Origin: Candidatus Eiseniibacteriota bacterium
GTDB lineage: Bacteria; Eisenbacteria; RBG-16-71-46; CAIMUX01; WJJG01
Direction of reading: 5' to 3'
Assembly: GCA_043806645.1 (NCBI GenBank)
Contig: JAZDGX010000129.1
Location: 1 to 43,737, forward strand
DNA length: 43,737 bases
Shown here: positions 31,922 through 39,029 of the stretch, piece by piece
Layout of the letters: each line of letters opens with the position of its first letter
Position numbering within the stretch: position 1 is the first letter of the stretch
The notes under the pieces: model-generated
Databases searched by the model: none
The model's input: only the letters and a program-made list of their open reading frames with translations
Told to the model about the DNA's origin: nothing
Translations under genes and position numbers: made by a program

Positions 31922-32269
31922 TTGGAATTCGACGAAAACCTGACCTCCTCTGCCCGGCTGTCGATTCTCGCGTGTCTGGTTCCGGGAGCTCCCGTGTCAT
32001 TTACGGAACTGAAGAAAAAATCAGGACTTGCAGATGGTAACCTCCATGTGCAGTGCAGGAAGCTGGAGCAGGCCGGGTACATCGAGGCCATCCGCGGACA
32101 ACGGGGGCGACGCTCTTGGACTCGATTCCGGATTTCCGAGCTCGGCTTGGCCTCCATCAGACTTCATGTACGAAAGCTCAGGACCATCCTCGAGACCGAA
32201 TCCGGAACGATCGCTCCCTCGCCCAAGCCCAAAGGGAAGCAGGATGAATCTCAAGTCTGGTCGAGATAA
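31922..32269 (+). CDS. Winged-helix transcriptional regulator (HTH_34 / MarR-ArsR-like)
   Basis: RLSILACL...VSFTELKKKSGLADGNLHVQCRKLEQAGYI...TRFRISELG; TTG start after AAGGGGAG. Confidence 0.82.
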   Translation: MEFDENLTSSARLSILACLVPGAPVSFTELKKKSGLADGNLHVQCRKLEQAGYIEAIRGQRGRRSWTRFRISELGLASIRLHVRKLRTILETESGTIAPSPKPKGKQDESQVWSR

Positions 32270-32311
32270 ACAGTTATCGAGCGACGACCCCGTCGATCCG
32301 GAGAGGGGATC

Positions 32312-33755
32312 ATGAAGATCGCGTTGGGCTCTGACCATGGCGGTTTTGCCCTGAAACAGCAACTTCTCGCCCACCTTCGGTCTCAGGGCCACGAGGTCCT
32401 TGACGTCGGGACTTCATCCTCCGAAGCAACCGACTATCCCATCTTTGCCGAGAAGGTCGCCCGCCAGGTGGCGGACAAGAAGTCCCAGCGGGGCATCATG
32501 ATCGATGGGGCGGGGATTGGATCGGCGATAGTGGCCAACAAGATCCCCGGGGTTCGTGCAGCCTTGGCCTACGACATCTCCTCCGCCGTCAACAGCCGGG
32601 AGCACAACGATGCGAACGTCCTCACGTTGGGCGCGGGCCTGATCGGGCCCGTCCTGGCGCGGCAGATCGTGGAGGCGTGGCTGTCTGCCAACTGCAAAGA
32701 AGACAGACACTTGCGAAGGGTGGCCTTGATTTCAGAGATCGAACGGGGGGGCCGGGGCTCCTCGCCCACCCCGACTTCGGCGGCAGCCGGAGGCTCGGTC
32801 GTCGGAGGCTCCGTCGCCGGAAGCCCGCCGCTCGCGATTTCCAGCGAGGACATGGAAAGAATCGCCCGCCAGCTCGAGGTCCTGCTGTCCGACTCCCCCG
32901 TGTCCGGACCCCTGCAACCATCCTCCCAAGCCACGCCGGTGACCGGGGCTCTCGAGGGCCTGACGCTCACCCGGCCTCTCTGGCCGACCGTGTCGACCAG
33001 CCCCGGAACCGCACGTCGGTTCATCGAGCTCGGGGTCGGGCGCTTCTCGGTCCCCGGCCCGCGGCCCGGCCCGATCCCGGAGGACATCGCCAGCTACATC
33101 GACCACACCCTGCTCAAACCCGACGCGACCCGCGGGCAGATCGTCCGCCTCTGCGGCGAAGCGCGCGAACATCACTTCGCGGCGGTCTGCGTCAATCCCC
33201 TTTGGGCCGCCCTCGCCGCCGACGAATTGAAGGGCTCGGGGGTGATCGCCTGCGCCGTGGTGGGCTTTCCTTTGGGCGCGACCTATCCGGAGGCCAAGTC
33301 CATGGAGGCCCGCCGCGCAATCCGCGGGGGCGCCCGCGAAATCGACATGGTCATCAACATCGGGGCGCTCAAGGACGGCGATGACGAAGGGGTTCTGTCC
33401 GATATCCGTGCAGTGGTCGAGGCATGCCGCGACGGCAGCGCGCGCTGCAAGGTGATCCTCGAGACCGCATTGTTGACCGACGACGAGAAGCGACGTGCAT
33501 GCCGTTTGGCCCGGCGCGCGCGGGCCCACTTCGTCAAGACGTCGACCGGATTCGGGCCCGGCGGGGCGACCGCGGACGACGTCGCACTGATGGCGGCCGA
33601 GGTGCGGCCCGCGGGCATGGAGGTCAAGGCCTCGGGGGGGCATCCGTTCCTATCCCGATGCCCAGCGCATGATCGAGGCGGGCGCGACGAGGATCGGCGC
33701 CAGCGCAGGGGTCGCGATCGTAGCGGAGGCACGGGCCGCGATGCCCGTGGGCTAG
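32312..33755 (+). CDS. deoC: RpiB-like isomerase / deoxyribose-phosphate aldolase (DeoC) fusion, with one extra G in the G7 run at 33634-33640
   Basis: N-terminal [28 protein letters not shown] (RpiB); [42 protein letters not shown] (DeoC). Removing one G restores [26 protein letters not shown]...TAG 33755. Confidence 0.9.
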
Positions 33756-33821
33756 CGGGTATCGGGCTCGGCCGCTGCGCCGCGGCGGCAAGTCAGAGGA
33801 GATCGAGCGAGGAGAAGGTCG

Positions 33822-34460
33822 ATGGCCGAATTGCGAGCCTATGTGTTTCTCGACAGCCTCCAGCCCCAGTTCGCCTCCTTTCAGGCGACCGTCTCCCAGG
33901 GCTTTCTCCCCAAGGAGCGCGAGGCCAGCCTGTTCGTCGAGGTGTCTCCGGGGATCGAGATCAACCGCATTACCGATGTCGCGTTGAAGTCGACGCGCGT
34001 CACTCCCGGCATGCAGATCGTCGAGCGGCTTTACGGAATGCTCGAGATCCACTCCCCCAGCCAGGCGGACATCCGCCAGGCCGGACGCGCGATCCTGGGC
34101 GAAATGGGCGTGCGCGAAGAGGACCGACTCAAGCCGCGCGTGCTCTCGAATCAGATCGTGCGCCATCTGGACGATCACCAGACGCAGCTGATCAACCGGA
34201 TGCGCCACGGCAACATGATCCTCGCCGGGCAGACGCTCTTCATTCTGGAATGCGAGCCGGCCGCCTATGCCGCGCTGGCGGCCAACGAGGCCGAGAAGGC
34301 GGCCGAGATCAACATCCTCGAGGTTCGCTCATTCGGGAGCTTCGGGCGCGTCTATCTGGGCGGCGAGGATCGCGACATCGACGTTGCCGCGCCGGCCGCC
34401 GTCAAGGCGATCGAGGGGCTGAGCGGACGCGTCCTGGAACACAAACCCGCAAGGCAGTGA
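33822..34460 (+). CDS. BMC shell trimer, double-layer permuted type (BMC-Tdp, CcmP/CsoS1D-like)
   Basis: [52 protein letters not shown]. Confidence 0.92.
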
Positions 34461-34620
34461 GCCCCCCCGGGGGCGCGGGCGGGAGGCGACAGGGAAGTCG
34501 CCCTCGCCCGCACTGTGGAACAGGCGGAGCAGTGGCAACGGGGTGCACGCCCCGGCAGGGGCGGGCGAAGGCCGCAGGGCCGTTCGCCGAAGTGATATCC
34601 AACCAAAGGAGCAGGGATCC

Positions 34621-34917
34621 ATGGCAGAAGCTCTGGGCATGATCGAATGCCGCTGCTTTCCGGCGATGGTGGAAGCGGCGGACGCAATGGTCAAGGCAGC
34701 CAAAGTGGAACTGGTGAGCTATGAGAAGACCGGCGGGGGCTACACGACCGCCATCATCCGCGGCGATGTCGCCGCAGTGAAGGCGGCGTGCGACGCGGGC
34801 CAGACCGCCGGCGCGCGCGTCGGAGAACTGGTCGCCGTGCACATCATCGCGCGCCCGCACGCCAACGTCGACCTGGTGATTCCGCTCGGCCGCCAAGCCG
34901 AACCGGCGAAGAAGTAG
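34621..34917 (+). CDS. BMC shell hexamer (BMC-H, EutM/PduA-like)
   Basis: ALGMIE...[11 protein letters not shown]...[10 protein letters not shown]...[14 protein letters not shown] upstream. Confidence 0.96.
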
Positions 34918-37514: not shown

Positions 37515-37626
37515 AGCAGGGCCCGCCCCGCGCGCGGGCGGGCGGGGCGGAGTGAGTCCATCGCGCAAGCGCGGGCGGGAAGCGAAGGAAGTTGCTCGAA
37601 CGCAAGGACGGGAGGCGGATCGAACG

Positions 37627-37938
37627 ATGAAGATCGGACGCGTCATCGGCACACTGGTCCCTTGCGTCGTCTATGACGGCCTGGCGGGCGTGCCACTGCT
37701 GTGGGTGCAGCCGCTCGCGCCCGGGGGAGAAGCGCGGGGCCGGCCCATCGTCTGCGCCGATTCGACCCGCATGGCGGGGCCGGGCGAGTGGATCTACTAC
37801 GAAAGCAGCCGCGAGGCCGCGCTGGCCCTCGAACCCTGGTTCGTTCCGGTCGACGATGCCATCGTGGGCATCATCGACGGTGTCAACCTGGAAGAAGAGA
37901 CACCGGACCGGACGGAGCAGCACGGAAGACATTCGTAG
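37627..37938 (+). CDS. BMC vertex pentamer (BMC-P) no. 2
   Basis: MKIGRVIGTLV...LLWVQPL...AGPGEWI...SREAA...VDDAIVGIID; GGAGG SD. Confidence 0.9.
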   Translation: MKIGRVIGTLVPCVVYDGLAGVPLLWVQPLAPGGEARGRPIVCADSTRMAGPGEWIYYESSREAALALEPWFVPVDDAIVGIIDGVNLEEETPDRTEQHGRHS

Positions 37939-37970
37939 CACGGGAGACATTCGTAGCACGGGAGACATGC
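37918..37970. repeat. 18-bp tandem repeat x3
   Basis: AGCACGGRAGACATTCGT units spanning the BMC-P2 stop; the last copy supplies the GGGAG SD of BMC-P3. Confidence 0.85.
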
Positions 37971-37971
37971 A

Positions 37972-38343
37972 ATGATCATCGGCCGCGTGACGGGATCGCT
38001 CTACTCGACGATCAATCATCCGATCCTCGATTACCGCAAGCTGCTCGTTGTGGAGAAGCTGGCACCGGACGGCACGCCGCTCGATGACTATCTCGTCGCC
38101 ATCGATACCGTCGACGCGGGCGTCGGCCAGATCGTGCTCATGATCGATGAGGGCAACTCGGCCCGGCAGGTGCTTGCCGCTCCCAACGCTCCCACGCGCT
38201 CGATCATCGTCGGGATCATCGATGCCATCGACATACCGGACGCGGACCCGGCGCGCCGCACGCCCCGCGCGGGCGGACCGGCAGGGACCGGACTGGGTCC
38301 CGCCCGGCCCAAGGCCGGCCGGTCCGGGAAATCGCCGTCATGA
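37972..38343 (+). CDS. BMC vertex pentamer (BMC-P) no. 3
   Basis: MIIGRVTGSLYST...VAIDTVDAGVGQIVL..EGNSARQ...IIVGIID, then a Pro/Gly/Arg tail. Confidence 0.92.
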   Translation: MIIGRVTGSLYSTINHPILDYRKLLVVEKLAPDGTPLDDYLVAIDTVDAGVGQIVLMIDEGNSARQVLAAPNAPTRSIIVGIIDAIDIPDADPARRTPRAGGPAGTGLGPARPKAGRSGKSPS

Positions 38344-39029
38344 TGGCGGAGTTTCTCATCCGCCGCAGCGTCGTCGAGGCGGGGCACCGCTTGTACGCCT
38401 GCGGTCTGGTGGCCGCGACGGACGGCAACATCAGCGCGCGCCTGCCCGGCCGCCGCCTGCTGGTCACGCCGGCAGGCTCCTGTCTGGGAGAGTTATGCGC
38501 GGAGGATCTGATCGTCGTCACCGACCTGTCCCTCTCCGGCAGGCCACCCTCCGATCACCTGCCCGCTCGGCGGCGGCCGACGAGCGAGCTGCCCCTGCAT
38601 CTGGCGGCGTATGCAGAGCGACCCGACATCGCCGCGCTCGTGCATGCCCATCCCCTCACGGTGACCGCGTTCACCGTGGCCGGCCTCACCCTGGATCTGC
38701 CCGTCCTCCCCGAGGTCCTGCTCTCCCTTGGACCGATTGCCACCGCGCCTTACGCCACCCCCTCGACCGGCGAAGGCGCCCGCGTCATCCGCGGGATCAT
38801 CGGCGCCCATGATGTGATCGTGCTCGATCGCCATGGCGCGATCGCGGTGGGCACAGATGCCATTGATGCCTGCCGCAAGATGGAGAAGCTTGAACAGGCG
38901 GCCCGCATTCTCTTGAACGCGCATCAGCTGGGCCGAGTACAAACGCTTCCGGAAGCCGAGGTCGAGCGCCTGAATGCCATGCGGCTCCGTTGCTTCCAGA
39001 CCGCCCCCCCGACCGCGACCCCGCGCTAG
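38340..39029 (+). CDS. Class II aldolase/adducin family protein (FucA-like)
   Basis: TDGNISAR, VTPAG, PTSE..LH, Zn ligands VHAHP and RHG. Confidence 0.92.
   Translation: MMAEFLIRRSVVEAGHRLYACGLVAATDGNISARLPGRRLLVTPAGSCLGELCAEDLIVVTDLSLSGRPPSDHLPARRRPTSELPLHLAAYAERPDIAALVHAHPLTVTAFTVAGLTLDLPVLPEVLLSLGPIATAPYATPSTGEGARVIRGIIGAHDVIVLDRHGAIAVGTDAIDACRKMEKLEQAARILLNAHQLGRVQTLPEAEVERLNAMRLRCFQTAPPTATPR

Follow-up and report, generated by a model that had tools for sequence, protein, structure and literature searches.

A probable SPU3-type microcompartment operon with a trailing class II aldolase in a Candidatus Eiseniibacteriota genome

Background

Which aldehyde would a bacterial microcompartment (BMC) process, and how would its cofactors be renewed, when a single operon encodes a complete shell, an acylating aldehyde dehydrogenase (AldDH) and two aldolases, and none of the enzymes of cofactor recycling? 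This question is raised by an operon in the 43,737-nucleotide contig JAZDGX010000129.1 of a Candidatus Eiseniibacteriota bacterium (assembly GCA_043806645.1), the whole of which is called the window here. The source assembly (G000) amounts to 2.96 Mb in 258 contigs and is 87% complete; the window is its contig C129 and has a GC content of about 0.64-0.70. An initial annotation, made from the letters of the sequence, had listed ten genes, and gene calls from Pfam and NCBIfam profiles and PDB sequence searches on the window's open reading frames (ORFs) bear out all ten together with their order, and place them on the plus strand. The genes occupy positions 31844-39029 and are separated by short gaps or overlap by 4 nt.

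Judged by the hallmarks published for the type, and not by the catalogue's locus classifier, the operon is likely to encode an SPU3-type metabolosome, a member of the sugar-phosphate (SPU) class of compartments, and the breakdown of deoxyribose phosphate would be its most probable task. The compartment is of an already catalogued type, for which a lack of recycling genes is normal.

Hallmarks of an SPU3 locus

SPU loci are those that encode a deoxyribose-phosphate aldolase (DERA, the DeoC family) together with AldDH (Sutter et al. 2021, PMC8217296; Dwyer, Sutter and Kerfeld 2024, PMC11585597). According to these papers, all SPU subtypes have a triplet of BMC-P genes, every SPU ribose-5-phosphate isomerase (RPI) has Asp in place of the catalytic Cys66, and the encapsulation peptide of the SPU AldDH is N-terminal, SPU6 excepted. 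Chimeras of RPI and DERA are described for 20 SPU3 loci and are reported for SPU3 only; the BMC-Tdp proteins of SPU2 and SPU3 are CcmP-like; and phosphotransacylase (PTAC) belongs to the subtypes without BMC-Tdp, namely SPU1, SPU4 and SPU7, where nearly every locus encodes it. The window operon has DERA with AldDH in a BMC locus, an RpiB-type protein with the Asp and three BMC-P genes, and also RPI and DERA in one protein, a CcmP-like BMC-Tdp and no PTAC. The earlier description of a complete single-operon SPU-type locus is thereby upheld, with DERA, AldDH and shell genes all present. Moreover, the AldDH of one related locus (L050), 59% identical to that of the window, comes from Anaerolineae bacterium CG2_30_64_16, a genome that is on the published list of SPU3.

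In the fusion protein an RpiB-like domain (about 32312-32740) precedes the DERA domain (about 33077-33754). The latter scores 219.7 bits against TIGR00126, for which the cut-off is 117.3, and matches solved DERAs at E 3e-65; the motifs with the catalytic Asp and two Lys, whose roles are taken from Dwyer et al. 2024 (PMC11585597), are all three conserved across 45 aligned fusions. As judged from its sequence, the domain is a bona fide deoxyribose-phosphate aldolase. Fusion of the two domains is the rule among relatives that hold both (44 of 50). In the RpiB domain an Asp is invariant across the 45 aligned fusions, at a position where the second RpiB of the genome (contig C60) has Cys; the equivalence of this column to E. 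coli Cys66 is taken over from Dwyer et al. 2024 (PMC11585597) and not from our own alignment. An amphipathic helix lies between the domains, and a helix-like motif can be recognized by eye at this place in most of 44 aligned fusions, the linker being otherwise variable. An encapsulation role for the interdomain helix was proposed by Dwyer et al. 2024 (PMC11585597), who also modelled the structure of the SPU3 chimera. As a separate observation, the linkers of 21 of 44 relatives' fusions (for example L023, L025, L029, L069 and L081) contain 4-7 cysteines between the interdomain helix and DERA, a stretch that could be a metal or iron-sulfur (Fe-S) site; no such stretch occurs in the fusion of the window or of its closest relatives.

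The second presumptive cargo enzyme, the AldDH, has near its N-terminus an amphipathic motif, a candidate encapsulation peptide (about 35353-35403), and behind it a linker rich in Pro. A loose version of this motif recurs in 71 of the 72 relatives for which upstream sequence is available, and the single miss, L060, has a similar helix.

Relatives were collected by a scan with the AldDH, taking one genome per species and keeping the best 80 of 551 confirmed stretches, which are 52-72% identical to the query. These 80 loci span Fibrobacterota, Krumholzibacteriota, Calditrichota, Marinimicrobia, Planctomycetota, Myxococcota, Chloroflexota, Acidobacteriota, Actinomycetota and Woeseiaceae, a spread that resembles the published SPU3 list (PMC11585597). 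The order RPI-DERA, Tdp (once or twice), H, P, AldDH, Ts, P, P was recovered by tblastn with the window proteins in 40 of the 80, and many of the remaining 40 are cut by contig ends. Closer to the window, Tdp is present in 18 of 31 genomes of its own order, and the full 11-gene arrangement, aldolase included, is found in G001 (same genus) and G009 (same family).

The trailing class II aldolase

The last gene of the operon poses a question of its own, namely what a second aldolase contributes. None of the NCBIfam equivalogs reaches its cut-off for this protein: the best is OtnC, 3-oxo-tetronate-4-phosphate decarboxylase (106 bits against a cut-off of 250), followed by FucA models (81-82 bits, cut-offs 250-264) and the ribulose-1-phosphate aldolase model (74 bits). 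Its PDB matches are 6voq (1e-23), DrdA (6btd, second best, 2e-19) and FucA (4e-16). The metal ligands and catalytic Glu are kept, E83, H102, H104 and H165 being the same in all ten sequences compared. Glu125, likewise invariant, stands where the two solved homologues 6voq and 6btd have a Tyr, a residue that we take to be Tyr113 of FucA.

HO-II-like aldolases, those of the Haliangium ochraceum (HO) type, extend at the C-terminus into a linker rich in Pro and then a short helix of amphipathic character. The window aldolase and those of G001, G009, L021, L023, L029 and L065 end soon after the catalytic core, and the length of the window protein is that of solved, extension-free family members. 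Because the encapsulation-peptide extension is missing, encapsulation of the aldolase is not indicated by its sequence. Furthermore, G024, which belongs to the same order, encodes a homologue that is 46% identical and has the same Glu; its gene is flanked by those for glutamine synthetase and NAD(P)HX repair and is not near any BMC gene. With no encapsulation peptide and a homologue outside any BMC locus, the earlier proposal that two aldolases feed one dehydrogenase is unsupported as stated. As to the fuculose and rhamnulose phosphates that had been suggested as substrates, searches of G000, an assembly that is 87% complete, did not find the fucose and rhamnose isomerases from which they would come (FucI, PF02952; RhaA, PF06134). 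Dwyer et al. 2024 suggest that the aldolase makes fructose 1,6-bisphosphate (PMC11585597), a role that appears doubtful from the family assignment because PF00596 is a different family from that of the fructose-bisphosphate aldolases.

In related loci that extend for 800 bases or more past the third BMC-P, a trailing aldolase is present in 3 of 45 that bear DERA (L021, L023 and L029) and in 3 of 3 that are visibly without it (L061, L064 and L076, of which two have Myxococcota-type titles and L064 an Enterobacterales title). The architecture of the latter three is the one named HO type II by Sutter et al. 2021 (PMC8217296). They bear on an alternative that we consider unlikely, that the window compartment is functionally of HO type II, with the class II aldolase as signature enzyme splitting a ketose 1-phosphate into dihydroxyacetone phosphate (DHAP) and an aldehyde, and RpiB-DERA as an add-on. 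The order Tdp-H-P-AldDH-Ts-P-P-aldolase is identical in the window and in these DERA-less loci, the aldolase has kept its metal ligands and catalytic Glu, and the module of two BMC-P genes plus aldolase is typical of HO loci (Sutter et al. 2021, PMC8217296). The resemblance of shell proteins and gene order to the H. ochraceum set, which the initial annotation had pointed out, is also real: the best natural PDB match of the BMC-H protein is HO-5815, and BMC-Tdp matches the HO T proteins at E 4e-69 and 5e-77. However, the AldDH groups with DERA-bearing loci. In a quick tree of 79 rows, rooted at the midpoint and supported by SH-aLRT values only, a long branch leads to a single clade of HO-II-like sequences (SH-aLRT 100), and those of the window, G001 and G009 fall outside it, inside the DERA-bearing majority, with the other double-aldolase loci in two further places. 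The window locus thus shares with HO type II the terminal module and neither the absence of DERA nor, by this tree, the HO-clade AldDH. In addition, the C-terminal linker and helix of the HO-II-like aldolases are missing here, and 42 of the 45 DERA-bearing relatives do without the aldolase.

A genome in which no shell gene was found is informative about the partner of the aldolase. G003, of the same family and 86% complete, has zero BMC-domain matches, and on the minus strand of its 7.6-kb contig C119 (L105), at 5716-7586, a DeoC-containing ORF is followed by the aldolase gene with a 4-nt overlap. At its upstream side the DeoC ORF is broken off by the contig end, with 149 residues or more ahead of the DeoC domain, and between DERA and aldolase there is none of the stretch that in the window runs from Tdp through AldDH to the third BMC-P. 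Because this shell-less genome keeps the pair adjacent, the aldolase is tied to DERA rather than to the shell.

A tentative and rather doubtful reading is that the aldolase common to this operon and the HO loci is neither a fuculose/rhamnulose nor a fructose-bisphosphate aldolase and may act as the partner of DERA in nucleoside-sugar breakdown. It would then cleave or reversibly form a pentulose 1-phosphate (such as ribulose 1-phosphate or 5-deoxyribulose 1-phosphate), with DHAP and glycolaldehyde or acetaldehyde on the other side of the reaction, and the Glu-for-Tyr replacement would mark a distinct subfamily. If this were true, the HO compartment would gain a function, and loci of this kind would be general traps for aldehydes from nucleoside sugars. 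Assignment as a DHAP-shunt aldolase proper was considered and rejected, in that no mtnA gene adjoins any of 82 related loci and DrdA for its part shares 53% identity with a FucA. The points in favor of the shunt are methylthioribose-1-phosphate isomerase (MtnA), encoded in G000 at C127:3-935 (358.8 bits, cut-off 279), the second-best PDB match to DrdA, and ARD dioxygenase, for which none of 15 genomes of the group has a match over the cut-off; they are retained only within the pentulose-1-phosphate reading. None of the papers searched joins a microcompartment with the DHAP shunt or 5-deoxyribose.

A frameshift in the signature enzyme

The initial annotation placed the RpiB-DeoC gene correctly but overlooked that its frame is broken as assembled. 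The assembled ORF runs for 776 codons with no stop until 34642 and crosses the BMC-Tdp gene; after a Lys-Ala-Ser-Gly-Gly motif its translation becomes Arg/Gly-rich nonsense, and the true DeoC C-terminus is found in the next frame, with a stop at 33752-33754. When one G of the run at 33634-33640 is skipped, the 479-residue product aligns right through its C-terminus with the fusions of 44 relatives (median 459.5 aa). Public sequencing runs, none of which contained more than 0.16 of the sampled words, yielded short contigs in four cases, mostly those of relatives, which served for comparison of the G-run only. Both of the public contigs that cover the run (from runs X1 and X3) are short by one base, and DERA is contiguous in G001 and G009. 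Because a public contig that is identical in all else has one G fewer and the relatives are intact, the extra G can probably be put down to faulty assembly, to a strain variant or to a minority allele, rather than to a dead operon.

That the frameshift is real, and the compartment part of a decaying operon without a working signature enzyme, is accordingly improbable. The assembly does have G7, after which the frame continues for some 300 wrong codons over the next gene, and the same-family genome G003, devoid of shell and AldDH genes, shows that loss occurs in the lineage. Against this, the contig from X1, an independent soil run, has G6 and over its remaining 151 bases does not differ from the window, the nine other genes of the operon are intact with high third-position GC, and errors of homopolymer length are a common assembly artefact.

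Cofactor recycling

No alcohol dehydrogenase (ADH), PduL/Pta, acetate kinase (AckA) or PduS-type enzyme is encoded at the locus; here profile searches agree with the initial annotation. The search for satellite genes that it had recommended gave no match to PF06130 (PduL), PF01515 (Pta) or PF00871 (acetate kinase), and none over the cut-off to PF00465 (Fe-ADH), in the 87%-complete G000. PduL was likewise not detected in the 30 relatives, which makes 31 genomes of the order searched without a match; as 23 of them have a completeness of 90% or more, its lack is not due to incompleteness. Fe-ADH is present in 8 of the 31 genomes and absent from G000, G001 and G009, all of which have the full locus. 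Across 58 related loci, 147 ORFs lying within 1.8 kb past the last BMC-P include no member of the PTAC, ADH, AckA or PduS families, and the genes inserted inside ten related loci are unrelated. An RnfC/PduS-like query found no match in the 80 related loci, and a NuoF-like query found one gene, about 8 kb off, in L057. A PduS or MNdh enzyme as NAD+ recycler was rejected for G000 itself, since the three Complex1_51K (PF01512) genes of the genome are an RnfC beside RnfD and two that are NuoF/HydB-like.

The lack of recycling enzymes is therefore real, but it is no new feature, being the published norm for SPU subtypes with BMC-Tdp. SPU operons without PTAC typically encode BMC-Tdp, a possible exit for acetyl-CoA, according to Dwyer et al. 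2024 (PMC11585597). The passage of cofactors through BMC-Tdp, as proposed in the initial annotation, is compatible with the locus, but in the case of acetyl-CoA it too had already been put forward in that paper. It is very improbable that recycling enzymes sit in the unassembled 13%, or belong to other families such as zinc-type ADH or Pta, and regenerate the cofactors inside the compartment: the assembly is incomplete and fragmented and the searches covered only PF06130, PF01515, PF00871, PF00465 and PF01512, but PduL is missing even from the same-genus genome with the same locus, and no candidate with an encapsulation peptide occurs in or beside the 80 related loci.

Shell proteins and feature coordinates

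The coordinates of the features are collected in Table 1. The stacked, gated trimer protein BMC-Tdp is closest to CcmP among PDB entries (E 1e-79), with HO T proteins next and CsoS1D at 9e-52; against the NCBIfam CcmP model it scores 327.8 bits, below the cut-off of 340. Its residues E68 and R69 align with CcmP residues 69 and 70, presumably the gate residues. The tandem-domain BMC-Ts matches 3nwg and PduT at E 1e-28 to 1e-30 and HO T1 (5dih) at 3e-23. At the pore position, where we assume that Cys38 of PduT holds its Fe-S cluster, the window protein has His; a regular-expression count over relatives gave His in 25, Gln in 20 and no fit in 35, with no Cys among the 45 scored. An Fe-S cluster of the PduT kind was rejected on these grounds. 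As an aside, a trimer of this protein would have three His around its pore, and such a ring might coordinate a metal or gate the passage. BMC-domain matches in the genome number four, all inside the locus, and tblastn found no second copies of the three BMC-P genes elsewhere in the genome.

Table 1. Features of the operon (positions in the window)
Feature	Position	Strand	Evidence and remarks
Winged-helix transcription regulator (HTH_34/MarR-like)	31844..32269	+	Pfam PF13601 E 7e-13
RpiB-DERA fusion	32312..33754	+	LacAB_rpiB (PF02502) E 2e-50; DeoC E 3e-13; 479 aa with frameshift read through
Amphipathic helix between domains, residues 177-194	32840..32893	+	candidate internal encapsulation peptide
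G7 run, one G too many, +1 frameshift in DeoC part	33634..33640	+	sequence compared with contigs of runs X1 and X3
BMC-Tdp, CcmP-like, stacked gated trimer type, 212 aa	33822..34460	+	PDB matches; Pfam BMC barely detects it
BMC-H hexamer	34621..34917	+	Pfam BMC E 9e-29; best natural PDB match HO-5815, E 3e-40
BMC-P pentamer 1	34998..35297	+	EutN_CcmL E 3e-28
CoA-acylating AldDH, EutE/PduP type	35347..36852	+	NF011927 644 bits, cut-off 403
BMC-Ts, tandem-domain, PduT-like	36849..37514	+	two BMC domains; PDB matches
BMC-P pentamer 2	37627..37938	+	EutN_CcmL E 2e-15
BMC-P pentamer 3	37972..38343	+	EutN_CcmL E 3e-23; stop overlaps aldolase start by 4 nt
Class II aldolase (FucA/AraD fold), 229 aa	38340..39029	+	Aldolase_II (PF00596) E 2e-39

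Proposed pathway and its weaknesses

The operon offers a full shell set (BMC-H, BMC-Ts, BMC-Tdp and three BMC-P) and two cargo proteins with targeting helices, RpiB-DERA and AldDH. From the families of these proteins and the published SPU model we infer the following steps. Deoxyribose 5-phosphate from the breakdown of DNA or nucleosides would enter the shell and be split by the DERA domain into glyceraldehyde 3-phosphate and acetaldehyde, and AldDH would trap the acetaldehyde as acetyl-CoA with reduction of NAD+. The RpiB-like domain, with Asp for its catalytic Cys, would probably serve packaging rather than isomerisation. Given that no PTAC, ADH or PduS-type enzyme is encoded at the locus, and no PduL in the genome or its relatives, the acetyl-CoA/CoA and NADH/NAD+ pairs would have to pass between shell and cytosol, for which BMC-Tdp with its wide gated pore is the most plausible route. 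The class II aldolase at the end of the operon would belong to one pathway with DERA, inside the shell or outside it.

As to the supply of substrate, tblastn found in G000 one pyrimidine-nucleoside phosphorylase, two genes of the purine-nucleoside-phosphorylase family and the second RpiB, but neither a second DERA nor a PF00596 gene other than the one in the operon. Nucleoside phosphorylase genes, pyrimidine or purine, flank 5 of the 80 related loci (L014, L015, L021, L023 and L057), which fits the published idea of DNA or nucleoside scavenging. In L015 and L023 the phosphorylase gene comes right after the aldolase, and L057 has a phosphomutase too.

Several points weigh against the assignment. 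The SPU3 label follows from the listed hallmarks and not from scoring with the catalogue's hidden Markov models and locus rules, and published SPU experiments, all of the enzymology among them, cover SPU6 proteins only and no SPU3 locus (PMC11585597). A search for phosphopentomutase (TIGR01696), the enzyme that supplies deoxyribose 5-phosphate, found none in the assembly, which is 87% complete. Were the extra G real in the strain, DERA would lose its last 38 residues and the signature enzyme would probably be dead. The class II aldolase is left unexplained by the SPU3 model, the AldDH tree that separates the window from the HO-II-like clade is a quick one supported by SH-aLRT only, and the passage of cofactors through BMC-Tdp is derived in the literature from pore size.

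Flanking genes

The winged-helix gene at the head of the operon is likely its regulator. The start at 31922 given in the initial annotation is a plausible later one, relatives aligning from residue 19-25, and a homologue occupies the same position in 18 of the 80 related loci as well as in G001 and G009. Upstream lies a divergent M20 peptidase gene, unrelated to the BMC operon. Downstream, the ORF at 39069-40142 has no family match and an N-terminus that looks signal-peptide-like by eye; two paralogues of it occur elsewhere in the genome. A promoter-like site at 39053-39081, just past the aldolase stop and before this ORF, matches 10 of 12 consensus positions. With one promoter-like site seen and 0.6 expected, and five terminator-like sites and 3.8 expected, neither kind of signal is informative.

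Farther off, on the minus strand at 29244-29975, a peroxiredoxin gene (AhpC-TSA plus 1-cysPrx_C) is present as two ORFs split by an in-frame TGA, which falls in the motif DFTFV-TGA-PTE, presumably at the usual site of the peroxidatic Cys. SelA is encoded in the genome (E 2.5e-129), and a hairpin with a fold z-score of -2.1 starts about 11 nt past the TGA; the split gene probably encodes a selenocysteine peroxiredoxin.

Significance and comparison with known systems

The locus adds one more lineage to SPU3, a catalogued and experimentally untouched subtype. The 31 related genomes confirm that such compartments run without phosphotransacylase, and bring to the fore the crossing of a protein shell by CoA and NAD+. 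Few loci carry both DERA and the HO-type aldolase, and a shell-less relative keeps just that pair adjacent; through this pairing the unexplained HO aldolase becomes connected with the metabolism of deoxyribose phosphate, and a compact operon is at hand in which to test the connection. These two observations, the combination and the shell-less pair, are modest additions that could help to assign the HO aldolase.

Among known systems, the catalogued types PVM and GRM5 resemble the window in having an aldolase gene of pfam00596 within a metabolosome locus. Unlike them, the window locus has no PTAC, and their signature, an aldolase scoring as FucA or RhaD together with the enzymes that feed it, is not seen in the 87%-complete G000, where the aldolase stays under the FucA/RhaD cut-offs and FucI and RhaA were not found. 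The SPU6 compartment of Chloroflexi bacterium GWB2_54_36, the source of the only assayed SPU enzymes, shares the DERA signature, and its RPI, which forms complexes with DERA, has the same Cys-to-Asp replacement. In contrast to the window, its DERA and RPI are separate proteins, each with an N-terminal extension, the AldDH peptide is C-terminal, the regulator is of the GntR family and the shell set is a different one. HO BMC type II is similar in the order of its shell genes, the terminal module of two BMC-P genes plus aldolase and the close shell protein matches, and differs in that the HO main locus is without DERA, the HO AldDH forms a separate clade and the HO aldolase has a C-terminal targeting helix. 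The window locus departs from SPU3 in general in the class II aldolase that trails its third BMC-P, and from about half of the related fusions in a linker without the Cys-rich stretch. With SPU3 it shares the RPI-DERA chimera, the CcmP-like BMC-Tdp along with BMC-Ts, the BMC-P triplet, the N-terminal AldDH peptide, the absence of PTAC, the RpiB Asp and a distribution of relatives over many phyla.

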